A stretch of 64,000 bases of DNA from Candidatus Micrarchaeia archaeon (lineage in GTDB: Archaea > Micrarchaeota > Micrarchaeia > CAILAH01). The stretch lies in NCBI GenBank assembly GCA_038874595.1, contig JAVZCB010000005.1, forward strand, positions 1-64,000, read 5' to 3'. The translations under genes and the position numbers were made by a program. The notes beneath the pieces are model-generated. The model saw only the letters and a program-made list of their open reading frames with translations, was not told the DNA's origin and ran no database searches. Numbering within the stretch: the stretch's first letter is position 1; each line of letters begins with the position of its first letter. Of this stretch, positions 1 through 48,998 are shown one piece after another.

Positions 1-2335
1 AATCAAATCCAACAAGTATTATCTCTTCTTGCCCAACACGCGGGTTTCTTGCCAAACGCACCCAACTGTATTGTATATCTGTTGCGTGGCCAGTGTCATC
101 AATGTACTGTTCAGTTGTGGTTGCAAAGCTTGAAGATGATGCAGGTAACACCCTATACGCAAGGTCCCTTGTCGTAACCGCACTTAAAACACCGTAAACG
201 ACAACCGCATCACCAGTTGCAGTTTCAAACCCAACATCAAACCTTCTTTGTGCTGCCGCTGTCGTCCATACCTGGCCTATGTTATTTGTAACCTGCCAAT
301 TTGCCACGTTTGTGCAGTTGCCCATACATACGTAACCATCCAAATATCCATCATCGCTTAGAGTTACGAGGACAATTTTGCTAGAAATAGGCGACCACTT
401 CACAACAGCCCACCGTACAGGTGACCCTGCGGTTGGAAGTTGAATCTCAGGGCCCCAACTGCCTTCACCGGTAGAATTCCAGAACCGTATCTTTGGAAAA
501 TTGAGGCCGCTGCCTGTATTCGACCTGTAAGCGATTATTGCATTGTAAACGCTGTTATACTCTTGTGCCGAATATGAATATGTATAATTACCAGGTTGCG
601 TCTGGTTAACGGTCTGGTTTGTTGGCTCACCTGTATAAATGCCCATCAACGCGTTATACACATCTATGCGTGTATATGTGTTTCCGCTGTGCTCAACAAA
701 CGTGCCTGACGTCTTGAGCAGGCGCTCCGCATCGGCGGGCAAAACTGAAGAGTTGTAAGAATAAAGAAGTGCATATGATGCGCTCACCATTGCTGCTGAA
801 ATAGAAGTCCCTGAATATGACCGGTCGCTTATGATTATGCCTTCACCAGGGGCAAGGAGGTCAACCATACCGTTTATATTTGAGAAGGATGCAACAGTGT
901 CATCTTTTGTTGTTGCTGCAACAGCGGTCACATTCCTGCCACAGGCCGGCGCGGTTATATAGGCCGCACCATCATTGCCTGAGGATGCAACAACTGATAT
1001 TCCTGTGCTGTATGCACCATCAGCAGCCATAACAACTGGGTCGAACTCACAGTAGCCCGTAAACTGGCCACCTCCAAAACTCATTGAAATAACCCTGATG
1101 TTGTGCTCGCTCGCATGCTCCATACAATAGGATATTCCCTGTATTATGGCTGATGAATATCCTGTGCCTGAGGAATCCAGCACCTTTACAGGGATTATTT
1201 TTGCATCGGGAGCAATTGCGTTTATCACTTTTGCCATTCGTGTACCGTGACCGTTATCATCACTCGGGTCTGAATCCCCATTTACAAAATCATACCCTTC
1301 AAACACATTATCTGCTTCGCTTGGATTAACACCTGTATCAAGCAGGCAAATAGCAATCCCTTCGCCAGTTACACCCATATCTGTATGTGCAATTTCCGCA
1401 CCTATCAGATAGGCCGAATCTTCAAGCGAGATTGACATTGGAATGTCTTTATATACCTCTTCTATAATGCCAGAGCTGACCAGTGATAAGAGCGTTTCGT
1501 TATCCAATTCAGTGAATCCAAACTGTACACTGCCAACCTGGACGGCATTGTGTTTGAGCGGGATATTTTTTGGACGTGCACTGGGCGAATACCTGACTAT
1601 AACCTTCTCCTTGCCGCCTTTGGCATATATAACATCGTATAACTCCCGTGAGATTTTTACACCTTTGCCTTCCTTATAAATATCACGCCTTGATAACCTG
1701 ACTGTATCACCATCCGCGCTTTCTACAATTATGCTGCCGGCATTAACCAACTCATCTACGTTCTTAACCACATCTTCAGAACCAACCACGGGGATAGGAA
1801 CCTCCTCTTCTTTTGAGTAGTCATCTGCGTTCACAAAACCATCAGGACTATCCTGCATATTGCCGGCTTCACTTGTGACAGTAATATCTTGCATGTTACT
1901 GCCAACCTGATTTGTGACATTAAGAGATTCATTAGCAGCATTTGTACTGTTGAGCGAAAGTATCTTCCCTGATGTGGCGTTTAGATATTCATCAACATTT
2001 ACAAACATGTCCTCGTCTAGGATTATGTGTACATTACTGTTAGGGCCAGCTATTTCTTCTTTATCATTATCCACGTTTCCCTCTTGCCTTATATAATTGT
2101 CAACATCAATGAAAAGCGTGCTCTGGGAGCCACTACTGTTGGAAGAGTATGAGAAATTGCAATAGCCTGAATAATCACATTCATTATTTATGCTATGGCT
2201 TGCGGATTCCTGCTGGGATGTATCCTGCAATAGCGTACCATTAATCCCAATTTCTAGTAGTATAAGCACGAATAAAAGCAAAGGTAGCATTACAAATGCT
2301 GCTACCGCACCCCTCCCGGGGGACCCCTTCTGCAT
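1..2335 (-). CDS. Secreted S8 (subtilisin-like) serine protease with long C-terminal extension; 3' end runs off the window; absent from ORF track
   Basis: Manual translation from ATG at 2335: hydrophobic N-terminus (MQKGSPGRGAVAAFVMLPLLLFVLILL), acidic spacer, propeptide-like segment, then catalytic motifs LLDTGV, NGHGT, oxyanion ASSGN and SGTSISAAMVSA. No stop found before position 1. Confidence 0.9.
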   Translation of the reverse strand, partial: MQKGSPGRGAVAAFVMLPLLLFVLILLEIGINGTLLQDTSQQESASHSINNECDYSGYCNFSYSSNSSGSQSTLFIDVDNYIRQEGNVDNDKEEIAGPNSNVHIILDEDMFVNVDEYLNATSGKILSLNSTNAANESLNVTNQVGSNMQDITVTSEAGNMQDSPDGFVNADDYSKEEEVPIPVVGSEDVVKNVDELVNAGSIIVESADGDTVRLSRRDIYKEGKGVKISRELYDVIYAKGGKEKVIVRYSPSARPKNIPLKHNAVQVGSVQFGFTELDNETLLSLVSSGIIEEVYKDIPMSISLEDSAYLIGAEIAHTDMGVTGEGIAICLLDTGVNPSEADNVFEGYDFVNGDSDPSDDNGHGTRMAKVINAIAPDAKIIPVKVLDSSGTGYSSAIIQGISYCMEHASEHNIRVISMSFGGGQFTGYCEFDPVVMAADGAYSTGISVVASSGNDGAAYITAPACGRNVTAVAATTKDDTVASFSNINGMVDLLAPGEGIIISDRSYSGTSISAAMVSASYALLYSYNSSVLPADAERLLKTSGTFVEHSGNTYTRIDVYNALMGIYTGEPTNQTVNQTQPGNYTYSYSAQEYNSVYNAIIAYRSNTGSGLNFPKIRFWNSTGEGSWGPEIQLPTAGSPVRWAVVKWSPISSKIVLVTLSDDGYLDGYVCMGNCTNVANWQVTNNIGQVWTTAAAQRRFDVGFETATGDAVVVYGVLSAVTTRDLAYRVLPASSSSFATTTEQYIDDTGHATDIQYSWVRLARNPRVGQEEIILVGFD

Positions 2336-2386
2336 GTGCAATAATCAGCTATAAAGCTCTTAAACATTATATGCAATTGTATTACA

Positions 2387-4465
2387 ATGTATAATTATGC
2401 CAAAAGCGCATTTGCATTACTTATACTTATAAGCCTGGTACACTGCATAGATACACCTGGTGGCAACGTTACAAACCTTGAGCTTAGCAGGTTTTCAAAC
2501 TCAACAAGGTGGGACGGCGTATACGGTGAAGTAATCCTCGGTGCAGGCACCAATTATACGTATACCGTCACTGGAAATAAAGTCGCTCGGCTTAATATAA
2601 TTGCGCAGGACCCACCTTGCACATATGTATCCTTATCAATCCACATAATCGCATACAATGCGAGTTCTATTACACTTCCACTAACGCCCGGTAACATTGC
2701 CAAACTTGATACGTTCATAGGAAACCAAACAGAAAATGCAACACTCACCTTCAAAAACACTTCCAATTTTACGCTGAGCACTGGAACATATATCGGTGTC
2801 CCAACAACATATACTTATGCAAATAGTACTTCCTCTTCAGATTTCAGGATGGGTTATCTGAACGATGCTGCAGGGAATCTCGTATTTATAACCAAAGTTG
2901 TAAGCAACAAGCCAGACTGGAACGGCTCAACAAGCGATTACCAGATAATGCTGCCGCGCAGCACCGGTCCAACCGGATACAACATTACAGCTGATGTGAT
3001 ATACACGTGCCAGCCAACCCCGGGGCCTGGCCCTTCCGGTGGCGGTGACGTGCACCGGCTTTACATATATCCTATAAACACCGTGCAGTCAAAGAAAAGT
3101 GTGCCTTTCCAGCTCAATGCAATTGTAAAAAATACCGGGGGGTTCAACGAGAAAGATATAAGTGTGTTTGTTGAGATGTGCCCGGTTGGCTTTTCGTGTG
3201 GGCAGGCACTGTTGCCTGAACTTAACAAGGGCAAAAGCAATAATGTTACTATCCAGCTTACAGCGGAAGCGGCCGGAGAATACGTGTTAAGCATATGTGC
3301 AAAAAGCGCATATACTAAATACTGTAGAGAGGTTATCGTAATAATTCTTCCTGAATGCTCTGCTGATTTTGAGTGTGACACCCAGGAATATTGCAGTGCC
3401 GGAGTATGCCTGCCAAAAAAGCCCGTGAAGGAAAAATGCACTGCTGGGAATGAGTGCAAGAGCAACCTATGCATTGGTGGCTATTGCGCTGAATGTGAGA
3501 GTAACAGTGATTGCCCGGCTAATGAGCAATGCTCTGCCGGGGTATGCTCAAAAATACCGTGCAGTTGCGGGACCATCAAGAACCACGAGTGTGTGCAGTA
3601 TGAATGTTGTGAAGACTCAATGTGCAGCGGAGAGAAGGTATGCGTTGCGAGCAAATGCGTTGAAAAGGAAATTATACTCCTTTTAGTAAAAGGTGAACTG
3701 ATAGAGGGGCAGGATGTTTTGGTTCGCGTTGAAAATAATAAGGGTGAGCCGGTACCTTTTGCAGTTATAACCACTGAAGACGGGCAGGTGCGAACTGCTG
3801 ATGAGAACGGCTATTCGACAGTGCGTGTGCCGTATGATGGGTTGATACGTGCAACTGCAGAAGGATATCCACAAGCAGGCATACTGCTTGATGTAACAAG
3901 GCTTGGCTTTATCACCGTTGAAGGCACCGTTTATGCAGGCATACCTGCAAAAATTACAATTAAGGATTCCAAAGGGAAGCCGCTTGCAAATGCAATCATA
4001 AGAGTTAATGGAAAGGAGTACATAACAAATGCAAAGGGTGAAGTATGGATTGTTTTTGACTCGGCTGGTAGGTTCGTGCTCAGTGGTGTGAAAGATAAAT
4101 ATCTTATTGCCAATGCGGAAATCAACGTTGTTGAAGCGGGGAAAGGCGCGTGTGGGTTCCCTATCATTTTAAGCGTGCTTTGGTTCCTTCCAAAAGATAT
4201 ATGGGTACTGTGGATTATCTCAACATTTGTGGCATTCATAAACATCGCGATATATGTCCAGAGAAAAAGGGAGGGCAGGAAACTCAGGGCAATAATTTAT
4301 TTCCTGCTCCCACTCGCGCTTGCGATCCCTGATGTTTATGTATTCAGCATCTGCTTTATGTCCAACATTGTAATCCTGCAATTCGCAATTGAGCTTCTCA
4401 TAATACTGAGAAACAGGCTTGTGCACCATCATAAAAGTAATGCAAGGAACAAGAATAAAGGATAA
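2387..4465 (+). CDS. Membrane-anchored surface protein: signal peptide, GGN-W family domain, Pro/Gly linker, Ig/CARDB-like domain, Cys-rich repeats, beta-rich domains, about 3 C-terminal TM helices
   Basis: 692 aa. GGNVTNLELS...RWDGVYG and YQIMLP align with 6353-7027. PTPGPGPSGGG linker, CxxxxxC repeats, hydrophobic C-terminal segments and a basic tail. Confidence 0.8.
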   Translation: MYNYAKSAFALLILISLVHCIDTPGGNVTNLELSRFSNSTRWDGVYGEVILGAGTNYTYTVTGNKVARLNIIAQDPPCTYVSLSIHIIAYNASSITLPLTPGNIAKLDTFIGNQTENATLTFKNTSNFTLSTGTYIGVPTTYTYANSTSSSDFRMGYLNDAAGNLVFITKVVSNKPDWNGSTSDYQIMLPRSTGPTGYNITADVIYTCQPTPGPGPSGGGDVHRLYIYPINTVQSKKSVPFQLNAIVKNTGGFNEKDISVFVEMCPVGFSCGQALLPELNKGKSNNVTIQLTAEAAGEYVLSICAKSAYTKYCREVIVIILPECSADFECDTQEYCSAGVCLPKKPVKEKCTAGNECKSNLCIGGYCAECESNSDCPANEQCSAGVCSKIPCSCGTIKNHECVQYECCEDSMCSGEKVCVASKCVEKEIILLLVKGELIEGQDVLVRVENNKGEPVPFAVITTEDGQVRTADENGYSTVRVPYDGLIRATAEGYPQAGILLDVTRLGFITVEGTVYAGIPAKITIKDSKGKPLANAIIRVNGKEYITNAKGEVWIVFDSAGRFVLSGVKDKYLIANAEINVVEAGKGACGFPIILSVLWFLPKDIWVLWIISTFVAFINIAIYVQRKREGRKLRAIIYFLLPLALAIPDVYVFSICFMSNIVILQFAIELLIILRNRLVHHHKSNARNKNKG
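3353..3663 (+). repeat. Cys-rich protein-level repeats (about 5 units) in the anchor protein
   Basis: ECSADFECDTQEYCSAGVC, KCTAGNECKSNLCIGGYC, ECESNSDCPANEQCSAGVC, PCSCGTIKNHEC, ECCEDSMCSGEKVCVASKC. Confidence 0.85.
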
Positions 4466-4533
4466 GAGATGAGAACCACAAACCCAAGCAATGTGCTTTG
4501 CTTGAAAAAAGCCAATAAAAAAGAGTAAAATAA

Positions 4534-6240
4534 CTAGTTCTTTCTTGAGGCCTTCGGAGGCACCGTTGTGCTGTGCTGCTTGCCCCCCTTAATCTTATCA
4601 AAGAGAAGGTATACAACTAAAATCACAAGTAGCACGATCACACCAAACAGGATAGCATTCATATCTATGCCTGGTGTGCCTGCCGCGGGCACATACTCCT
4701 TTTCAACCCTCTTATTAAGGAACGCTTCACGTGCACCGTAGTTTGCACCACCGATTATGCGAACACCATCATTTACAAGGCCTGGGAATTTCACCATCTC
4801 GCCCTTTCCTGGCTGGAGTGCATATACAGTATCACTACGGATTTTTGTGCTCATAGCTCCATTTATCACAGTCGCATCAGGCCTGAAATAAAGTGGTATG
4901 TTACCGGTATTTGTGTAAGTTATATACAGGTCGCCAGTATTCTTGTCAGCAGTAAACCCAGATATGTTGAGGCTTGACTTGTCAGTGAACTCAACCCTGC
5001 CGACTGGCAACCCCATCATAAACCCTGCCTCGGCAGCACGCTTTGATGAGCCGTAAAGCACTGTTATGTTAGTGAACAGGTCACCACTTTCAACATTTAC
5101 AGGATATGTGCGGCCGACTTTTTCACCTCTCCCAAGCGCAAAGAAATCATCATCACCAACGGTGGATACAAGATTGCCATCTATTAGAAGACGTATCTGC
5201 GATTTTGCGTATTCCAGCGCATTGCCTGTGTTAGCATATGTAACCTCAAGCTGTTTTGTAAGGGTATTATATTCTACCTTCTCTATTGTTAGCCCAAGTA
5301 CCGGCCCGGGAAGCGGGAAAAGCTCAACTTGCCTCATCCCACCTGCTGCAGATGTGCTCTCACCTATCTTGACAAAGGCATGCAGGGCGGTTACGCCCAA
5401 TTCGCTGTTTATTGAGGTCTTAAGGTTGTATATCGGCTGCGTATACTCATTATCAACTATGAGGAGGACTTTTATCTGGCCCTGTGCTGCCTTCTGTTTT
5501 ATGTAATCGTATACATAAGTTGGCGGGAGAGGGCTTACTAAAATTACTGGGTCGTCACCTTTTGCAATAGTATCCTCAAATGCGTTGCCATCTGAAACTA
5601 TCACCTGCCTCTTTGTGGGGTTTTTCTTGAAATACATTTCAACTATTTGGAGATTGTCATCAAACTTGTCACCGTTGTTTATCTCTGTGTATGAAATACC
5701 CTCATTTTCAAGGGCCTTCTTAGATTCTGCATCAATATACCCATAAAGCAAGACTTCGCGCGGGCTTTTTGATTTAAGGAAGCTTACCACTGAATCCAGA
5801 TTGCTCTTATCTATAAATATCAAATACATAGAATTTAACTTGGCATACGCAAGCGCAGAGACTGTATTATAGCCGTATACCGAATCAACAAGTATAAACT
5901 TACTGGCGCCGCTTTTACCTGCAAGGTAGAGATTTGTTTTATATGGGTCTTCAGATTCAAACAGCTCAACGCGATTGCCCATATTCTTAAGGTCGGCTGC
6001 CATCCCAGTTATAACCGGGCTTGACTTTGATTGTATAAGAAAGACGTTGCCGTTTGAGCCTATCTTGCTATATACGAGCCGCGCGTCATACATTGGGCGG
6101 ATAAACACTATGTTTTCCCCTCTAATCGCTGCATAGTATATGCCAGAAACAACGTCCCTGCCATCAAGAGAATTTACAACCACCGTGCTGTGCCCAAGCA
6201 TCATAAAGCAAAGCAAGAATATTAGGAAGCATCTGCGCAT
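4534..6240 (-). CDS. Secreted, C-terminally membrane-anchored protein: alpha/beta repeats (cell-wall-binding-2-like) followed by two Ig-like domains
   Basis: 568 aa. Signal peptide; repeated alpha/beta units (VVVNSLDGRDVVSGIYYAA, ILVDSVYGYNTVSALAYAK); two similar beta domains (VTYANTGN, ITYTNTGN); TM helix plus basic tail. The family call is by eye. Confidence 0.65.
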   Translation of the reverse strand: MRRCFLIFLLCFMMLGHSTVVVNSLDGRDVVSGIYYAAIRGENIVFIRPMYDARLVYSKIGSNGNVFLIQSKSSPVITGMAADLKNMGNRVELFESEDPYKTNLYLAGKSGASKFILVDSVYGYNTVSALAYAKLNSMYLIFIDKSNLDSVVSFLKSKSPREVLLYGYIDAESKKALENEGISYTEINNGDKFDDNLQIVEMYFKKNPTKRQVIVSDGNAFEDTIAKGDDPVILVSPLPPTYVYDYIKQKAAQGQIKVLLIVDNEYTQPIYNLKTSINSELGVTALHAFVKIGESTSAAGGMRQVELFPLPGPVLGLTIEKVEYNTLTKQLEVTYANTGNALEYAKSQIRLLIDGNLVSTVGDDDFFALGRGEKVGRTYPVNVESGDLFTNITVLYGSSKRAAEAGFMMGLPVGRVEFTDKSSLNISGFTADKNTGDLYITYTNTGNIPLYFRPDATVINGAMSTKIRSDTVYALQPGKGEMVKFPGLVNDGVRIIGGANYGAREAFLNKRVEKEYVPAAGTPGIDMNAILFGVIVLLVILVVYLLFDKIKGGKQHSTTVPPKASRKN

Positions 6241-6295
6241 GCTATTAAATTACAATACAAACTTTAAAAAAAGCGGATAGGTATGCTCAACGTAA

Positions 6296-6352
6296 GGGAA
6301 CATTATATTTATAAGTGTTTACGATGATGTATGCGTATCTAAAGGTGGTTAG
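6296..6352 (+). promoter_or_regulatory. Putative TATA box and SD for 6353-7027, in a divergent intergenic region shared with 4534-6240
   Basis: TTTATAAG at 6308-6315; AGGTGG ending 4 nt before the ATG at 6353. Confidence 0.55.
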
Positions 6353-7027
6353 ATGAAGAAGGTGCATATAATATTAGCCCTCATACTAATGCTTGGTATA
6401 GGGCTTTTGGCGGCAATACAGCCGGCAAACGGGTGGAATGTTATTTCAACAGGTAGATATGCTACCCCTACTGTACAGGCAAACCACACAACACAGGGTG
6501 GAAACGTTACCAATATGGACTTGAGCCAGAATAGGTCAACCACAAAGTGGGCTGGCTACTGGGGTAACGTGAGTGGAATAATATTCCTCAGCCCGGCAAC
6601 TGCTGTGTTTTACAAATGGGTGTGGGCACCTGCAAACGGTGGTGTAGTATGCGCTGTTGCTGCACCAAGCGGATTTGACTGGAGCGGAGTACAAAGTGTT
6701 GTTGCAAGTGCAATTGATACAATATGGAATTTTGGAACTGCAACAGACAATGCTGCAAACACACTGACCCAGGCAACATGCAACGTCAATATTGGCGGCA
6801 CGAGCGTAACCTCAATCGGTAACAGGACAGGTGTTGGCGGGTTTGAAACTTGTGCGGTTGCAGATAATGCGGCACCGGCTGCAAAGAGTGACCTTGCATT
6901 CTGTGTTAATGTAAGTGGTGCTGGCAACCTGTTCAACGGCCAGACCGGTAACTATGAGCTGCTCGTCCCAACCAACAAGACGATAGGTGCAACTGAGACC
7001 TACTACTTCTGGATGGAGATGAGATAA
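6353..7027 (+). CDS. Small secreted stand-alone GGN-W family domain protein; candidate major filament subunit
   Basis: 224 aa. Signal peptide; Ala/Thr/Gly/Asn-rich and beta-strand-like; 4 Cys conserved in the two C-terminal-domain paralogues; ends ETYYFWMEMR; no TM anchor. Confidence 0.8.
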   Translation: MKKVHIILALILMLGIGLLAAIQPANGWNVISTGRYATPTVQANHTTQGGNVTNMDLSQNRSTTKWAGYWGNVSGIIFLSPATAVFYKWVWAPANGGVVCAVAAPSGFDWSGVQSVVASAIDTIWNFGTATDNAANTLTQATCNVNIGGTSVTSIGNRTGVGGFETCAVADNAAPAAKSDLAFCVNVSGAGNLFNGQTGNYELLVPTNKTIGATETYYFWMEMR

Positions 7028-7071: not shown

Positions 7072-7656
7072 TCAATACGATGCCCTTTTCTCAACTGCCT
7101 CCCAGTCAACTGCACCCATAAATGCATTAATGTAGTCTGCTTTTTTCAGACCATAGTCAAGCATATATGCGTGCTCAAATACGTCCATTACCAGTAATGG
7201 GGTGCACCCTGTGAAATGGCCTACATCGTGCTCGTTTATCCATACATTAAAAAGGCGCCCGCTTGATTTATCATAGTAGAGAATAACCCATCCAATGCCG
7301 CGCATTGTGCCCATTGCACGAAAATCCTTCTCCCATAATTCATAAGAGCCCCATTCCTTCTCAATAAGCTGGCGTAATTTGCTGGTGCTATTGAGTGGCC
7401 TGCCACCCTTTATCATATTGCCAAAATAAAGCTCGTGCAACCGCATACCGTTAAACTCCCACCCCAATCTCCTATTAAGCTCGCTGTAATCTGGAGTGCC
7501 AAATTTTCCTTCCTTTTCCATTTGCATTATGCTCTGGTCCAGCTTGTTGAAGTTTGCAACATACCCCTCATACAACTTAAAATGGTTTTCAAGGAGCGCA
7601 TTGCTGAATCCAGAAGTGCCTAAAAGTGCCCGGAAATCTTTCTGCTTATATGCCAT
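7072..7656 (-). CDS. sod: Fe/Mn superoxide dismutase
   Basis: ENHFKLYEGYV, LHELYF and DVFEHAY metal-ligand motifs; 194 aa. Confidence 0.92.
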   Translation of the reverse strand: MAYKQKDFRALLGTSGFSNALLENHFKLYEGYVANFNKLDQSIMQMEKEGKFGTPDYSELNRRLGWEFNGMRLHELYFGNMIKGGRPLNSTSKLRQLIEKEWGSYELWEKDFRAMGTMRGIGWVILYYDKSSGRLFNVWINEHDVGHFTGCTPLLVMDVFEHAYMLDYGLKKADYINAFMGAVDWEAVEKRASY

Positions 7657-7725
7657 AGATTATTTTGAGGAAAAAAGCTTTTTATACGCTACACACTTAC
7701 GATGAGTAGGTTCAAAATAAGTACG

Positions 7726-8402
7726 CTATGGCACCTGTTTCTCCTTTGTCGTTATCTTGCAAGTAGATGCCGGATAGATTTCAAATAAGTGCACTATGAT
7801 TCCGTGGACGGTTGCCAATCGGGAAGTACAAGGCCGAAATAATGTATTCCAGATATGTGCACTGTGATTCCAGGTTTTTTCATCAAGAGGAATCGTAACG
7901 TTTCTATGAGCTTTGGTTCTTTTCATCAAGAGGAATCGTAACGTTTCTATGGGCCTTGGTAAGAATGCCTGTGTATTTGGATACTGGTGAGCACAAACAA
8001 TCAAGAGAAATCGTAACGTTTCTATGAGCTTTGGTTCTTTTCATCAAGAGGAATCGTGACCTTTTTTACAAAAAGTATAAGCCGTACTGTATCAGTAAGG
8101 CCGTCTTTGCTTACAGTATGCTCTGCCACAATCCTTCCAAGGCGCGAAACTGATGGCTCATACTCAAAATTCATATTGAAGCCTTGGCACGACAGCGCCT
8201 CCACATACTTTTGGGATTCGCACCAGCCGAGCTTCTTGCAGAGATCATCAACCTGCAGATACTTGTCATAATTGCTTGCCTTATCATATGCAATGTCCTC
8301 TTCCTTATCCCCACACTTCCTCTTTGTTTCTATCAGGTTGCCACAAACCTTCCCGAATATTCTCATCCTTGCCTGTTTCATTGATAAAATTATGGAAGGC
8401 AA
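7726..8402 (-). pseudogene. Orphan gene apparently split by a repeat expansion (ORFs 8022-8402 and 7726-8004)
   Basis: Both ORFs contain VTIPLDEK, encoded by the outer repeat copies. Removing the 161 bp between them gives one 171-aa frame. Confidence 0.5.
7877..8060. repeat. 43-bp direct repeats: two tandem pairs separated by a ~40-bp unique segment
   Basis: Unit ttttcatcaagaggaatcgtaacgtttctatgagctttggttc. The 'catcaagag' anchor lies at 7881, 7924, ~7999 (variant) and 8042 (partial copy). Confidence 0.95.
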
Positions 8403-8469
8403 TTATCTAAAACTTATTGCGTTTTATGACCAAAACCTATATTAATAAACTAGATGCTAATTGAAAATA

Positions 8470-8802
8470 ATGGGAAATGGTTCATCTTTCGTATCAAAAA
8501 ACGATAGTGAGTGGAAAAAGAAATCGGCACGGGCTCTCTTCAATGCTGTAAAGGAGGGGAATGCTGAGCGTGTTGAGGCACTCATCAAAAGGAGCGTCGA
8601 TGTAAATGTCAGGGATAATAATAACAGGACTCCTATCATGCACGCGGTTATGCTGGATAATATAGAAATCGCAAAACTGCTGGTTAAGTACGGCGCAGAT
8701 GTAAATGCAAAGGATATCTACGGAAGGTCGGTGTTACAGCTAGCTGAGGAAGGAAGCGGCTCACTCGTGGAATTCCTGAAAGAGCACGGGGCGGAATATT
8801 AA
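8470..8802 (+). CDS. Ankyrin repeat protein
   Basis: ALFNAVKEGNAERVEALIKRSVDVN; RTPIMHAV...LLVKYGADVNAKDIYGRS. Confidence 0.9.
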   Translation: MGNGSSFVSKNDSEWKKKSARALFNAVKEGNAERVEALIKRSVDVNVRDNNNRTPIMHAVMLDNIEIAKLLVKYGADVNAKDIYGRSVLQLAEEGSGSLVEFLKEHGAEY

Positions 8803-8890
8803 ATCAAGTTTTCATAGTGGGAGGCACACTGGAAACGCGCTTTGAAAACCTTTTAAACAGTAGGAGCCACAAAACATTAGCGGTGTTTGT

Positions 8891-9910
8891 ATGCCAAAAG
8901 AGCTTGTTGAAGAAGAAACAATAGAGGAGTTTAATGCCGCAGAGCTTGATGAGGAAAGGTCTACAAAAAAAAGGCCTAAAACATTGGAGGACCTTCCTGG
9001 GATTGGAAAAGCAACTGCTGAAAAGCTGAGAAGTGCGGGTTATGATTCTTTTGAGAAGATTGCAGCCGCCTCGGCACACGAGCTTAGCACTATTGCTGAG
9101 ATGGGGCTTGAAACTGCAAAAAAAGCAATTGGGGCGGCGCGCGATGCTCTTGAGATGGGGTTTGAGAGTGCCGATGTTATACTTGAGAGGAGAAAAACGA
9201 TTGCTAGGATAAGCACCGGCTCAAAAGAGCTGGATAAGCTCCTTGGTGGGGGTATTGAAACACAGGCAATAACAGAATTTTATGGGAAGTTCTCATCAGG
9301 TAAAAGCCAGGTTGGGTTCCAGCTTGCAGTGAATGTGCAGCTGCCACCTGAGGAAGGTGGCTTGGGCGGCGGGTGCCTGTTCATAGATACTGAATCTACA
9401 TTCAGGCCAGAGAGGATTGTGCAGATGGCTGAGGCAAAGAATATGGACCCACAAGCAGTGCTAAAGAACATCTATGTTGCACGGGCTGTAAATTCAGACC
9501 ATCAAATCCTGCTCGCGGATAAGGCTGCGGACATAATAAAAGAGAAAAACATCAAGCTTATTGTTGTAGACTCAATGATGTCCCAATTCAGGAGTGATTA
9601 TACGGGAAGAGGTGCACTGGGTGAAAGGCAGCAGAAGCTGAATAAGCACCTTCACCAGCTGCAAAAGCTCGCAGATATGTATAATATTGCCGTGTACATA
9701 ACAAACCAGGTGATGGATAAGCCGGATATACTGTTTGGAGATCCTACTGCACCAATAGGGGGTCACGTGCTTGCACATAATGCAACATATAGGGTATACC
9801 TAAGAAAAGGGAAGAACGAGAAAAGGATTGCTAGGCTTGTTGATTCACCAAGCTTGCCGGAAGGGGAGGCAATATTCGGTGTAACTGAAAATGGGATTGA
9901 GGATGTATAA
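8891..9910 (+). CDS. radA: DNA repair and recombination protein RadA
   Basis: N-terminal HhH (LEDLPGIG), Walker [32 protein letters not shown]. Confidence 0.97.
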
Positions 9911-11396: not shown

Positions 11397-14213
11397 TTAC
11401 CTTAAACCAAAGTATAGGTAATACGTTTCCAGCTGCCCTGCACCATACGCAACTGGAAGGATAATCTCAAAATCAGCTGGCACACCATTGAATGCTGTGC
11501 CTGTTGAATTTACATTTGTGCAAAAGAGCAGATTATTCTTTTGAGGCTGAAGCTTTGTCTTAATTATACAAGTAACGAAGCCTCCCGCTGAACCTGTATC
11601 TGCATAGTAGCAGTTTGTTATGTTCCTGTTGTTTATAGTTATATTGCAGCCTGGCTGCCTAAATGTATTTGAACCTGAGTCAGAAACACTTCCAAAACCC
11701 CATGCAAAATCAATATCTGCTCCTGAAGCACCACGCGCAGAACCTGATAACAAAGAACTGTTTGTTGTAGCACACACAACTCCTCCATCTGCAGCATTCC
11801 AAGACCAACGGTAAACATAATTTGTTATGTCGCCCATAGCACTTGTAAGATATATCTCATTAGTTATGCTACCATAAAGTGCTGCCCACCTGTCTGTAAG
11901 TATGCTTGAACTTAGGTTAAGATCACTTATATTACCTCCCTCTATTTTTATATTGCTGCTTATAATATCGCCTTTCCACCTTTCAAGATTTGTTATGTTC
12001 GTAGCATTTGTATGGAATAGATTTATCGGCGTGCCATTAAAAGCATCCAATACAATAAAAGTATCATTTGCAGTAAGCGTCGTAAATCCCAACTTGGAAC
12101 AGGTAACATTGTATGTGTGATCATCCGGCTGTGTGACATTTATTAACCTAATGTATATGTTTGTGCTTTCAGACATTGTGTATGTGCTACCATTAAAAAG
12201 TGTCAAAATACATGTTGCTCCGCTTATATGTGAGCTGTCAGTTGAATTTGAATAATTGGCTGTGAATGTAATTGTCTGGTTTGAGTATTTTGGGCCGTTA
12301 TTATATATTATCAGATTGGCATTTCCACCATACGCATATCCTGAAAAAGATGCAGCATCAAATAAAAGAATGCCCCCACTACATTTTAAGTTTGAGCAAA
12401 CAGACGGAGGGCATGTGCTCCCACTGGAAGAGATCGTTGATTTTGATATATGAAAATTATCTGCATAAATAAGATTAGTTCTAGTAAAAGAGGCACAATC
12501 GTTAACATACAACTTAACCTTTGACAACGTATTCATTGAAGGCAATTCATCTGAATCAAGAGAAACAAAATCTGGGCGCAAGAAAACTGTCCTACTATTA
12601 GATAATACCCCGTTCGCTGAGCTTATTGAAGGATAATTGATTATGCCTACGCTTTGATTATACCCATAAGTAACATTTGAAATTTCTGCATTTGCATTTG
12701 CAAGAGAAATAAACGTTGACGCGTTTGAATCATAAATAGACATATTATAAAGCTTCACCCCTGAAAGGGCATTCTTTGTTGTGTTAATCTTTACCAAAAA
12801 AAGTTCTGCATTCCCAGAAACTGAGGAATACCCACTCCCAACATAGTTCCCCTCTTTATCAACTGCTACAGAGCTTAAAAAGCTTGAAACACCCATAAGA
12901 TTTCTCCAGTGCCACAAGAGATTTCCGTTAGAGGTTACTTTTATAATGCTCTGTTCAAGGGTGCTTGGGATATAATCATAGCCGGCGATTAGGTAATTGT
13001 TATCCTGATCAACTTTAATATTAGTAAGTGAATCAAACCCTGAACTTGGGTTATACTTCCATACCCATAGCGTTTCACCTTCTGGTGAAATTTTAACAAC
13101 AATCCATTGAGCATTGCCGGGCGTGTAATCATATCCAACAGCAATGTAATTGTTATCTTGATCAACTGTTATGGAATTAAGCGTATCATATCCAGAGCTT
13201 GGATTATATGTCCAATTCCATATTTGTGTTCCAGAAGGGGAGAATTTAAAGACCCTCCATCTCATATTTCCAAGTGCATTATCATACCCGGCAAATACGT
13301 AGTTTCCGTCATGATCAACAGCAACGCTGGTCAAATAATCTGAAGTTGTACTCGGGTTATGTGTCCAACTCCATATTAAACTTCCAGAAGAGGATATCTT
13401 CACAGCCCGAAACTCTAAGTTACCCGGAGCATTATCAATGCCTACTGCAATGTAATTGTTTTCATTATCTACAGCAACCGCTGCAAATCTGTCAGAACCA
13501 CTGCTCGGGTTCTGTGCCCAGCTCCATATGAGCTCTCCCTCCGAAGATATTTTTACCATCCTAAGCTCGTTGTTACCAGGTATGGTATCATAACCAACTG
13601 CAATATAATTGCCTTCTCGGTCAACATCAACATAAACTAAAGAATCATCCCCACTGCTTGGATTAAGCGTCCAGTTCCAAATGCCGGTACCTTTTGGAGA
13701 AAACTTGGACACTAAAAACCTATTATTTCCTAAGCTACCATCATAACCTGCTACTACGTAATTATTGTCCTGGTCAGCACTTACTGAAAAATATATATCA
13801 CTTAGTGAGCTGGGATTGGTTATATAATACCAACTGACATTCCTTGTGTTTTCATTTATGTCAAAAATGCTTATCGCATTGCCAAAATTTTTCAAAACCC
13901 CATTCTTAACAATCGTCCCACTATAACGACTAAAAATTGCATTTCCCAAACCAGTATTACTAATGACTGATCCATTAAGGTCTATCTGGATGTTGCTTTT
14001 GTTAACTACAAATAATGAATATGGGGAGATAGTTGTAAAGTCGCCCTTGCATAATACTACATCATCTATTACATAGAAGGATTTCCCGCTAGTGGAAATA
14101 TTAACCAACTTTCCACTCCACGTATTAGCATTATTTAAATCAACACACGTGGGATAAATACTGGCTATTGCTATAATGTTAAGTAGCAATATAACCAAAC
14201 TACCCCTACACAT
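11397..14213 (-). CDS. Large secreted protein: beta-helix-like segment, 7-repeat beta-propeller, Ig-like domain and C-terminal GGN-W family domain; candidate tip adhesin
   Basis: 938 aa. Signal peptide; seven ~51-aa repeats; C-terminal ~205 aa aligns with 6353-7027 and 48370-48998; no TM anchor. Confidence 0.8.
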   Translation of the reverse strand: MCRGSLVILLLNIIAIASIYPTCVDLNNANTWSGKLVNISTSGKSFYVIDDVVLCKGDFTTISPYSLFVVNKSNIQIDLNGSVISNTGLGNAIFSRYSGTIVKNGVLKNFGNAISIFDINENTRNVSWYYITNPSSLSDIYFSVSADQDNNYVVAGYDGSLGNNRFLVSKFSPKGTGIWNWTLNPSSGDDSLVYVDVDREGNYIAVGYDTIPGNNELRMVKISSEGELIWSWAQNPSSGSDRFAAVAVDNENNYIAVGIDNAPGNLEFRAVKISSSGSLIWSWTHNPSTTSDYLTSVAVDHDGNYVFAGYDNALGNMRWRVFKFSPSGTQIWNWTYNPSSGYDTLNSITVDQDNNYIAVGYDYTPGNAQWIVVKISPEGETLWVWKYNPSSGFDSLTNIKVDQDNNYLIAGYDYIPSTLEQSIIKVTSNGNLLWHWRNLMGVSSFLSSVAVDKEGNYVGSGYSSVSGNAELFLVKINTTKNALSGVKLYNMSIYDSNASTFISLANANAEISNVTYGYNQSVGIINYPSISSANGVLSNSRTVFLRPDFVSLDSDELPSMNTLSKVKLYVNDCASFTRTNLIYADNFHISKSTISSSGSTCPPSVCSNLKCSGGILLFDAASFSGYAYGGNANLIIYNNGPKYSNQTITFTANYSNSTDSSHISGATCILTLFNGSTYTMSESTNIYIRLINVTQPDDHTYNVTCSKLGFTTLTANDTFIVLDAFNGTPINLFHTNATNITNLERWKGDIISSNIKIEGGNISDLNLSSSILTDRWAALYGSITNEIYLTSAMGDITNYVYRWSWNAADGGVVCATTNSSLLSGSARGASGADIDFAWGFGSVSDSGSNTFRQPGCNITINNRNITNCYYADTGSAGGFVTCIIKTKLQPQKNNLLFCTNVNSTGTAFNGVPADFEIILPVAYGAGQLETYYLYFGLR
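12780..13832 (-). repeat. Seven ~51-aa (153-bp) beta-propeller blade repeats
   Basis: Consensus WxWxxNPSSGxDxLxSVxVDxDxNYIxVGYDxxPGNxxxxVxKISxxGxxI, read seven times in the translation. Confidence 0.9.
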
Positions 14214-46862: not shown

Positions 46863-48998
46863 ATGGAATTAAAGTGGGTGCTACTATCCTTTATGTTTAT
46901 CTTATCGCTCATGGTTATTGTAAATGCTGCAGATTGTCCTACACCTATAAGCGCCCCGGGCACGTATGTTATGAGTGAAGATTATGCTGGCGCGCCTTAT
47001 AGTGATCCGATTGTGGATGGAAAAGCGTGTGTAAAAATCACTTCAAGTGATGTCATATTTGACTGCAACAACCACTATATACACAACAATGGAACTGCTG
47101 GATTAACTTATGGTATTCTGGTTGTCAGCAATTTACCAGTAACAAACGTAACAATAAAAAATTGCCGCGGGATTTATGATTATACCGATGGGATATATTT
47201 TCACGAAACACAAAACTCGCGAATTGAAAAAGTAGTTTCAAATAATAACGGTAATGGTTTTGTGGTTAATGGTGGCCAAAACAATACTATTTTCAATAAC
47301 ACTGTGCACTCAAACGAATATGGGATTTCAATATTGAGCTCATCGAAGAATATTGTTGAGAAAAATTACATATATTCACAAAAAGAAGGGGTGATTATAA
47401 CCCTCTCAACAAAAAACACAGTCAAGGATAATAAAATCTATAATAACGTAATTAATGGGATATCCCTAACTTTGTTATCTATGTATAACAACCTCACAGG
47501 AAACACACTTGAGAACAATGGGATACGGGGAGTATATGCAGAACTTGCCTCACACCACAACTATGTCTACAATAATTCAGCAAAAGGAGGGACATGGGGA
47601 TTTAGGTTTACCTCTTCCGGTAATACCACGCTTATAAAAAACACTGCTAGTGAAAGCATAGTAGGATTTCTTGTTGAGCAAAGCGAGAACTGCACCCTAA
47701 AAAACAACATTGCCATAAGAAATTCTGATACTGGTTTTGCGGTGGGACAACTATCACACAGGACAAAGATGGAAAACAACACTGGCTATGGCTCGGATAA
47801 TGGGCTTTATATTGATACAAGCAATAATGTGGTTGTTGACACGTTTACCACATACAACAACGATTTGTACGGGATATATATACTAGATTCTTACGGGGCG
47901 CAGATTAAAAACGTGCACGTGTACAACAGCTCAACAGAGTTCTATGCAGAGTCAGGAGGTGTTACAACTTCCATTAGTGTTACAAACATCACGATAGATA
48001 ATCCAAACGGCGGGTTTGTCAACAAGACGGTCCTTAACATATTTGATACCATAAATAACGGTGAAGAGCTTGCAATTAAGTGGGTGAGGAACACATATCC
48101 CCTACCACCCGGCAAATCTTCGTTTGAAGGCAAGTTCCTTAATATTAGCGGCGTTGCATCCATAAACAAGATAGAATGGCTCTGGACGCTGAGTGAATCC
48201 AGCGGGTACGATGAGGAATCGTTTGAGCTCGCAAAATATAGCGGCTCGGGATGGTCACGCGTAAGTGCAACTCTTGATATTGTACTGCATAAAATGACTG
48301 TGTACAATTTACTGCCTGCGAGCATATACGGGATTCTTGGTAATGGTAGCACACTAAACTACACAATTGCGGACATATACCGCGCAAACGTAACAAACAG
48401 GACAAGCCTGGCAAGATGGAGTGGTACTGGCGAGGCAGGGAGGGCAAATATTGAAGGAGGCAACATCAGCGACCTGAACTTAAGCTCAAGAACACTTACA
48501 GACAGATGGGCTGCTTTCTATGGTGATATTGTAGGTAGTATTTATCTTACAACCAATGCAGGAGGCCTTTCTAATTATGTTTATATGTGGAACTGGGCGC
48601 CTGCATACGGTGGTACTGTATGCGCATCAACTAATTCATCGATGTTAAGCATAAATGTGACAGGCGCAAGCGGCAGGGATGTTGATGGTGCGTGGGGTTT
48701 TGGGGATGCGGCTGATAACGGGAGGAACACGTTTGTCGGGCTAGGGTGTGATATCTTGCTTGGAAGCGCAAACGTAACCGGTGCGGACTTTGCAGACACT
48801 GGTGCAGCTGGTGGTTTCAGGACGTGTGCACTCAAGACAAAAAAATCCCCTTCAAAAAGCAATATGCTGTTTTGTACGCGTATAGATGCAAATGGTGCGG
48901 CCTTTGATAATACACCTGCAAACTTTGAGATTATTGTTCCTACTGCTTTTGGTAATGGTGTGTTTGAGACATACTATTTCTATGCTGCTTTTGATTAA
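46863..48998 (+). CDS. Secreted parallel beta-helix (NosD/PbH1-like) protein with C-terminal GGN-W family domain; candidate tip adhesin
   Basis: 711 aa. Signal peptide; many GIxLxxSxxNxIxNN-type repeats; C-terminal domain (48370-48998) aligns with 11397-12020 and 6353-7027. Confidence 0.82.
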   Translation: MELKWVLLSFMFILSLMVIVNAADCPTPISAPGTYVMSEDYAGAPYSDPIVDGKACVKITSSDVIFDCNNHYIHNNGTAGLTYGILVVSNLPVTNVTIKNCRGIYDYTDGIYFHETQNSRIEKVVSNNNGNGFVVNGGQNNTIFNNTVHSNEYGISILSSSKNIVEKNYIYSQKEGVIITLSTKNTVKDNKIYNNVINGISLTLLSMYNNLTGNTLENNGIRGVYAELASHHNYVYNNSAKGGTWGFRFTSSGNTTLIKNTASESIVGFLVEQSENCTLKNNIAIRNSDTGFAVGQLSHRTKMENNTGYGSDNGLYIDTSNNVVVDTFTTYNNDLYGIYILDSYGAQIKNVHVYNSSTEFYAESGGVTTSISVTNITIDNPNGGFVNKTVLNIFDTINNGEELAIKWVRNTYPLPPGKSSFEGKFLNISGVASINKIEWLWTLSESSGYDEESFELAKYSGSGWSRVSATLDIVLHKMTVYNLLPASIYGILGNGSTLNYTIADIYRANVTNRTSLARWSGTGEAGRANIEGGNISDLNLSSRTLTDRWAAFYGDIVGSIYLTTNAGGLSNYVYMWNWAPAYGGTVCASTNSSMLSINVTGASGRDVDGAWGFGDAADNGRNTFVGLGCDILLGSANVTGADFADTGAAGGFRTCALKTKKSPSKSNMLFCTRIDANGAAFDNTPANFEIIVPTAFGNGVFETYYFYAAFD

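Follow-up and report, generated by a model that had tools for sequence, protein, structure and literature searches.

Chaperone-usher pili (FimA/FimH, PapA/PapG/PapH) combine an N-terminal donor strand with an acceptor-only tip adhesin and a terminator, and type V pili use a C-terminal donor strand. Much remains to be learned about how DPANN archaea locate their hosts and stay attached to them. DPANN cells have been described with thin filaments, whose protein identity was not established (PMC11329633). The Pam pili of the CPR are Sec-secreted donor-strand fibres of small-genome symbionts and are built without an usher. They comprise an acceptor-only tip (PamT), a membrane anchor with an N-terminal donor (PamR) and membrane-tethered helpers (PamC/D); their pilins are two-domain proteins of 39-55 kDa with the donor in the linker and were reported in CPR only (PMC13278184). 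The Elr/WxL pili of Enterococcus contain a small free subunit, an N-terminal donor, a large adhesin that carries the subunit's domain C-terminally, a membrane-anchored helper of two Ig domains and a basal terminator, and Elr was reported as confined to Bacillota (10.64898/2026.10.17.759780). In archaea, threads, AbpA/AbpX, cannulae and tafi are non-type-IV fibres that share strands. According to the accessible parts of these reports, they come from Thermoproteota and haloarchaea, not from DPANN; tafi are Tat-dependent and cannulae chaperone-free (PMC9715654, PMC9245690, PMC12518558, PMC11821415). SPEARE and other giant DPANN proteins are secreted and adhesin-like, one of them with an N-terminal serine protease. 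The available portions of the sources present SPEARE proteins as single membrane-anchored chains with an inner ATPase and describe no shared polymerising domain or fibre (PMC6642349, PMC10266531).

Here, we analyse a Micrarchaeota locus that, known from sequences and models alone, would build a Sec-secreted, probably N-glycosylated, non-type-IV donor-strand pilus, a reading to which we assign a probability of roughly 70%. The likely use of such a fibre is adhesion to cells or surfaces. Each subunit would carry a GGN donor on its N-terminal arm and a groove beside a Trp-containing strand, and the donor of one subunit is predicted to occupy its neighbour's groove. A giant groove-only adhesin, here the subtilase/beta-helix giant, would initiate assembly, which would proceed at the membrane by addition of free subunits and occasional passenger-bearing subunits. 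As the motif distribution suggests, assembly would stop once the anchor donates its strand and fills its groove itself by means of a second, internal donor copy. A CWB2-Ig-Ig membrane protein would act as assembly chaperone or platform.

In our best reading, the proposed pilus works like the Pam and Elr/WxL pili, for which the same parts list has been published (PMC13278184; 10.64898/2026.10.17.759780), and homology to them was not detected. Sec secretion, the missing usher and the small-genome symbiont recur here, and PamT, PamR and PamC/D resemble the proposed parts. In contrast to the two-domain Pam pilins, the subunit is a single domain of about 200 residues with an N-terminal arm, and the locus differs further in its CWB2-headed helper, giant caps and in-line passengers. 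The Elr/WxL parts listed above likewise have their counterparts, but the anchor's C-terminus has membrane helices and a basic tail in place of LPxTG/sortase, and no WxL or DUF916/DUF3324 Pfam match was obtained in 150 subunits or 37 accessory proteins. Unlike chaperone-usher pili, the proposed fibre would need neither usher nor outer membrane, and its donor pairing is parallel in the model; among the matches listed, Fim/Pap pilins showed no fold match to the subunit. No match between the domain and TasA, AbpA, thread, cannula or tafi subunits was present among the listed phmmer, profile and fold results, a finding compatible with remote homology. Compared with SPEARE proteins, as far as the accessible text describes them, the giant encoded here would end in the shared domain without a membrane helix and the anchor of the window has no ATPase, although HerA-fused anchors of other lineages match the plan of ectodomain, helix and ATPase in part.

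The locus and its genome

The genome is a Micrarchaeota MAG of 918 kb in 7 contigs. The window, by which we mean the whole stretch of 64,000 nucleotides analysed, lies on contig C5. Named homologues are from Micrarchaeota, and most of the stretch is also present in an independent hot-spring metagenome; no RNA dataset with the stretch was among the matches listed. All six open reading frames singled out by the initial annotation were found where it had placed them. The first (1-2341, reverse strand) encodes the 5' part of a giant secreted protein with an S8 subtilase and is cut by the contig end. It is followed by the genes for the membrane anchor and proposed terminator (2387-4465, forward strand, 692 aa), the accessory protein (4534-6240, reverse strand, 568 aa) and the stand-alone subunit, which we propose to be the major shaft subunit (6353-7027, forward strand, 224 aa). 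The 112-bp gap given for this gene group was confirmed, and so was the 51-bp gap, provided that the ATG at 2335 is the start of the subtilase gene; with the TTG upstream of it, at 2341, the gap would be 45 bp. Further downstream are the genes for two passenger subunits. One (11397-14213, reverse strand, 938 aa) has beta-propeller-like repeats and a C-terminal shared domain (approximately 11397-12011), the other (46863-48998, forward strand, 711 aa) a right-handed beta-helix and the same C-terminal domain (approximately 48381-48998). A second, paralogous locus was identified on contig C2 of the same genome. Its genes encode a free subunit, a protein paralogous to the accessory protein and 31% identical to it, an adaptor-like protein and a giant of 4,861 aa. 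Including this locus and an open reading frame that ends contig C4, at least four further copies of the shared domain are located outside the window.

The shared domain and its distribution

A domain of about 200 residues had been noted four times in the window, and BLAST and HMM comparisons place this similarity above chance. The free subunit is 32-33% identical to the two passenger copies (BLAST, E about 1e-32), which share 55% identity with each other. BLAST detects the anchor copy only weakly (24% identity, E 4e-4), but a leave-one-out HMM (E 3e-8) and the family HMM (E 3.5e-32) both pick it up. The earlier description of three shared motifs, four Cys and a terminal ETYY strand was borne out, and across the family the four Cys are found in only 44-55% of the free subunits.

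The family comprises 1,594 clusters at 50% identity. Within the phylum, 301 genomes were sampled and 71 of them have the domain, with a patchy distribution by family: among the genomes searched in two large families, the domain was found in 0 of 75 and 0 of 54. It also occurs in Woesearchaeota, Pacearchaeota, Diapherotrites and some Methanosarcinales, including Methanoperedens. Methanosarcinales are not DPANN symbionts. A paper on Methanoperedens filaments was considered as a description of the family and rejected, its subject being cytochrome nanowires. Our literature search, which covered a minority of subscription journals, returned no paper on the family. The three architectures of the domain are found again, as is the accessory gene, in loci from Micrarchaeota, Woesearchaeota, Pacearchaeota and Methanosarcinales, and twice in the present genome; in nine of 79 loci the subunit, accessory protein, anchor and passenger are all encoded within the limited flanks available. 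The architectures found across these loci support the initial proposal that one fold is reused as shaft, anchor and adhesin carrier.

Searches of Pfam, NCBIfam and PDB sequences with the subunit (phmmer and profile) gave no match, and an Atlas search returned unnamed archaeal clusters only. Its model had no clear fold match in the Foldseek PDB and viral libraries, and in a wide VIA-align comparison, with the donor strand missing from the model, the best Z was 3.1 and no pilin stood out. Absent fold matches do not establish a new fold, the more so since the monomer model lacks the donor strand. More tentative than the pilus itself, and in our judgement well short of an even chance, is the wider view that these loci represent an undescribed, widespread class of DPANN pili with a fold of its own. 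This class would consist of a polar donor-strand fibre, a CWB2-headed membrane chaperone, multi-thousand-residue adhesin caps (here with a protease), in-line passengers and, in Pacearchaeota-type loci, a membrane HerA-type ATPase as its root, and would be a main organ of host capture.

Predicted strand exchange between subunits

The subunit, a 22-kDa protein with 7 N-glycosylation sequons, consists of a signal peptide (residues 1-21), an N-terminal arm, the predicted donor strand with the GGN motif (residues 47-57; 6491-6523, forward strand), the acceptor strand starting at the invariant W66 (residues 66-73; 6548-6571, forward strand) and a terminal strand at the C-terminus. Signal peptides were assessed by eye and by conservation; that of the subunit has a class I-like site with a conserved A21 (88%). 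A motif scan for class III signal peptides, the hallmark of type IV pili and archaella, yielded candidates on contigs C2 and C6 and none in these genes; the Sec-type secretion suggested earlier is supported.

Confidence in the monomer model sets in at residue 61. The preceding arm (residues 21-60) has a pLDDT under 50, although G50 within it is invariant. A model of three copies reached a score of 0.72 (runs 0.73, 0.38 and 0.72), compared to 0.00 for the best of 3 controls; at least 50% of the contacts agreed between the runs and the partner pLDDT was at least 77. The single run at just 0.38 speaks against the pilus reading. In a benchmark, 20 of the 30 proteins whose structures were solved as pairs attained this score mark, and so did 1 of the 23 with single-chain structures; both figures are only approximate for three copies and our own alignment. 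The predicted interface is asymmetric and involves residues 42-63 of one copy and residues 62-82, 99 and 201-221 of the next. Within it, the donor 47-57 runs parallel to strand 66-73 of the next copy and touches residues 99 and 201-221. The pairs T47-A67, N51-A67 and G49-P206 covary, which is not independent of the model because both draw on the same evolutionary signal. In the model, the GGN strand of one copy enters the next and links the copies head-to-tail, in agreement with the strand exchange anticipated in the initial annotation. The findings that this annotation had listed as counting against it, namely a self-complete monomer, a match of the domain to a known S-layer protein or enzyme, or a lack of co-occurrence across genomes, were not encountered.

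Donor and acceptor strands across the family

We classed the donor and acceptor strands of the family by profile scores. The resulting distribution is a line of support separate from the structural model, and the counts, taken from related genomes, are not independent events. In 140 of 142 free subunits and in 22 of 22 anchors, the donor motif is present and precedes the acceptor Trp by about 16 residues. The copies that bear passengers separate cleanly: 44 have the donor and 21 lack it, and roughly ten further passenger copies, which were left unscored, look donor-less by eye. The acceptor strand of the anchors is decayed, with a median score of 4.8 compared to 34 in free subunits. The best second donor-like match in most anchors is located 21-23 residues after the Trp, and such a match scores 5 or more in 12 of 24 anchors compared to 3 of 143 subunits. 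In the anchor of the window, the second donor-like strand (residues 63-71; 2573-2599, forward strand) has a borderline score of 4.8 and lies 21 residues after the acceptor Trp, at the fixed offset of the family. We propose from the sequence that these residues may complement the anchor's own groove. A cap with only an acceptor, shaft subunits with two ends and a self-plugged anchor that bears a donor make up the set which a polar strand-exchange chain requires. The features of a cap and a terminator are seen at the sequence level, and head-to-tail strand completion in the predicted model only.

In the anchor, the donor directly follows the signal peptide; next come the shared domain (residues 25-207), a Pro/Gly linker, a CARDB-like Ig domain, Cys-rich repeats, an Ig-like stalk, C-terminal membrane helices and a basic tail. 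No ATPase domain was found in this protein. HerA-domain-fused anchors of the family were confirmed in other lineages (Pacearchaeota-type).

The model sets no chain length, and both the three-copy arrangement and the strand distribution fit a short chain equally well. The locus could then encode a strand-linked stalk or connector in which a few subunits join the adhesin to its membrane anchor for modular display. The several to ten domain copies of many genomes, many of them fused to huge passengers, would agree with such a stalk. However, free subunits outnumber C- and N-terminal copies in the 79 loci (148 versus 29 and 24 by automatic classification, ratios that are biased because the loci were found via a free subunit). 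They are expanded to as many as six or seven per locus, resembling a set of major and minor pilins, and no feature of the subunit limits chain length. We give the stalk an outside chance and prefer the pilus, for which the analysis names a subunit and a specific donor strand (residues 47-57), together with a strand rule by which the cap, shaft, in-line passenger and anchor members of the family can be told apart by their sequences alone. If true, the pilus would account for the attachment of many giant DPANN surface proteins that lack membrane anchors, add a strand-exchange fibre without a fold match in the libraries searched, and offer a candidate means for such cells to hold partners or surfaces.

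The accessory protein

The accessory gene is the most conserved partner of the subunit and was found in 38 of 79 loci. Its product was modelled with a pLDDT of 89 and consists of a CWB2-fold trimer (approximately residues 13-287), two Ig-like domains (313-520) and a membrane helix (527-551). The N-terminal 275 or so residues match Clostridioides difficile SlpA (7acz) with a Z of 19.5 and an rmsd of 3.4 over 264 aligned residues. Matches to SlpA, Cwp8 (Z 19.2) and Cwp6 together span Z 19.0-19.5, rmsd 3.4-4.7 and 261-279 aligned residues, so that the three CWB2 repeats are present as a trimer according to the fold match. Identity to these CWB2 proteins is 12-17%, and the accessory protein differs from them by its two Ig domains and membrane helix. 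A weak PF04122 match was obtained in 10 of 37 accessory proteins.

This likeness, together with the sequon-rich subunits, would suit an S-layer-like envelope lattice in which the domain is the lattice subunit, with the passengers as decoration and the CWB2 protein as the anchor, the role of the CWB2 region in SlpA. But the model predicts a single polar head-to-tail contact, the donor-less caps together with the self-plugged anchors point to a two-ended chain, and the domain is distributed too patchily across the phylum, as described above, for us to regard a lattice as anything but improbable.

For the pilus, our best guess by analogy is that the accessory protein may be a membrane-bound assembly chaperone or platform, since membrane-bound two-Ig chaperones assemble the Pam and Elr pili (PMC13278184; 10.64898/2026.10.17.759780). 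Its Ig pair shows a weak Foldseek similarity to WxLIP (E 3e-8, but rmsd 15), and no PapD/FimC match of the Ig domains was among the matches listed. A donor-mimic strand was looked for in the protein and none was recognisable. Derived from analogy and synteny, the chaperone role is the weakest step of the proposed mechanism.

The passenger subunits

The two passengers of the window had been regarded as distal tips. According to the profile scores, both keep donor and acceptor strands, and the separate donor-less class fits the cap, so this assignment does not stand. Judged by their strands, 11397-14213 and 46863-48998 are probably in-line subunits. In all free and passenger copies the domain reaches the exact C-terminus, as would also be expected if the domain were a monomeric fold complete in itself and served at the C-terminus as a tag for sorting, folding or glycan binding, the free copies then being soluble binding proteins. 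The arm could indeed fold back, parallel pairing of residues 52-57 with 68-73 within one chain being geometrically possible. Such a tag leaves unexplained the N-terminal copies in anchors, the loss of GGN in one class and its duplication in another, and the score of the three-copy model compared to the controls also argues against it; we consider it very unlikely.

The subtilase as a probable part of a proposed giant capping adhesin

The subtilase reading frame has no stop codon and runs off the contig start. Its S8 domain (residues 326-546) contains the Asp/His/Ser motifs and is followed by a further module. A search for a complete S8 giant in the order revealed only another incomplete copy, and in contigs spanning the window start a join to C4 was not seen. 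The homologue P0233 is 67% identical to the subtilase protein, and over its last 187 residues it matches, with 64% identity, the beginning of the reading frame at the end of C4 (126741-129059), which has a donor-less copy of the shared domain at its terminus. From these homologues, with the C5-C4 join not present in the assembly, the two reading frames are very probably continuous. Complete relatives share the post-protease module, show no match to the protease and carry the same donor-less domain at their end; P0244, P0249 and P0258 are the same giant proteins with other N-termini. In six loci such a giant adjoins the anchor or accessory gene. The bridge provided by P0233, the protease-less relatives and these neighbourhoods indicate that the capping adhesin very probably carries the protease as an exchangeable passenger. 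We propose from the sequence that the subtilase giant may cap the fibre via its donor-less domain; no membrane helix was found in donor-less caps.

The initial annotation had considered the subtilase as a maturation protease, and the idea of a type V-like pathway, in which its cleavage of the subunits triggers strand exchange, draws on the catalytic motifs and on a position next to the anchor in five loci, but is highly improbable given that within the limited flanks no subtilase was found in the other 74 of the 79 loci, that the same giants carry other N-termini, that the closest full S8 giant adjoins a ribosomal operon and that the predicted donor is N-terminal here. A maturation protease encoded elsewhere in the genome would be compatible with these observations. 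The subtilase reading frame also begins with an N-terminal hydrophobic stretch that could be an uncleaved anchor.

Locus variants in other genomes and on a second contig

In some loci of the Pacearchaeota/Woesearchaeota type (L060:3637-7281, L067:3742-7140 and the similar L081, L084, L085, L092 and L111), the anchor does not end at the membrane helix but carries a HerA/FtsK-like ATPase on the cytoplasmic side. Among all of these loci, the extension was checked for two. A different arrangement is found at L114:8052-13397, where one subunit lies between two accessory-like genes, with an anchor after them.

The genome from which the window derives carries a second locus on contig C2 (C2:76877-109530; L001 and L002), which encodes a 4,861-aa donor-less cap, a free subunit and a paralogue of the accessory protein. 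It also encodes a 528-aa protein with the donor at its N-terminus and without a membrane helix. A second domain of this protein weakly resembles parts of the neighboring 567-aa and 2,818-aa proteins. The 528-aa protein may be an adaptor that connects to a second linking system; beside it lies a 640-aa membrane-anchored protein. Type IV pilin-like genes with candidate class III signal peptides are located elsewhere in this genome (C2:59817-60491, C2:192515-193421, C6:8598-9065 and C6:44083-44589). Therefore, it probably possesses a separate type IV system.

Neighboring genes and the contig start

An unnamed secreted family of ~320 aa, often encoded downstream of subunits (L086:13021-13998 and 21 other loci), gave no Pfam match; judged by eye, the strand pattern at its C-terminus looks pilin-like or WxL-like. 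Between tandem subunit genes, many Woesearchaeota/Pacearchaeota loci harbor a gene for a ~205-aa protein resembling a winged-helix regulator (L111:9382-9999 and 27 other loci). In the window, the subunit gene is followed by apparent housekeeping neighbors (7072-9910), recognized from sequence only: what is probably an Fe/Mn superoxide dismutase (7072-7656), a short protein with ankyrin repeats (8461-8802) and RadA (8891-9910).

At the contig start (1-545), the assemblies from three runs are interrupted around position 500-545, which may be because the module after the subtilase (ORF 1-2341, minus strand) is common to many unrelated giant proteins. In one run, positions 1-544 are covered by a much deeper contig.
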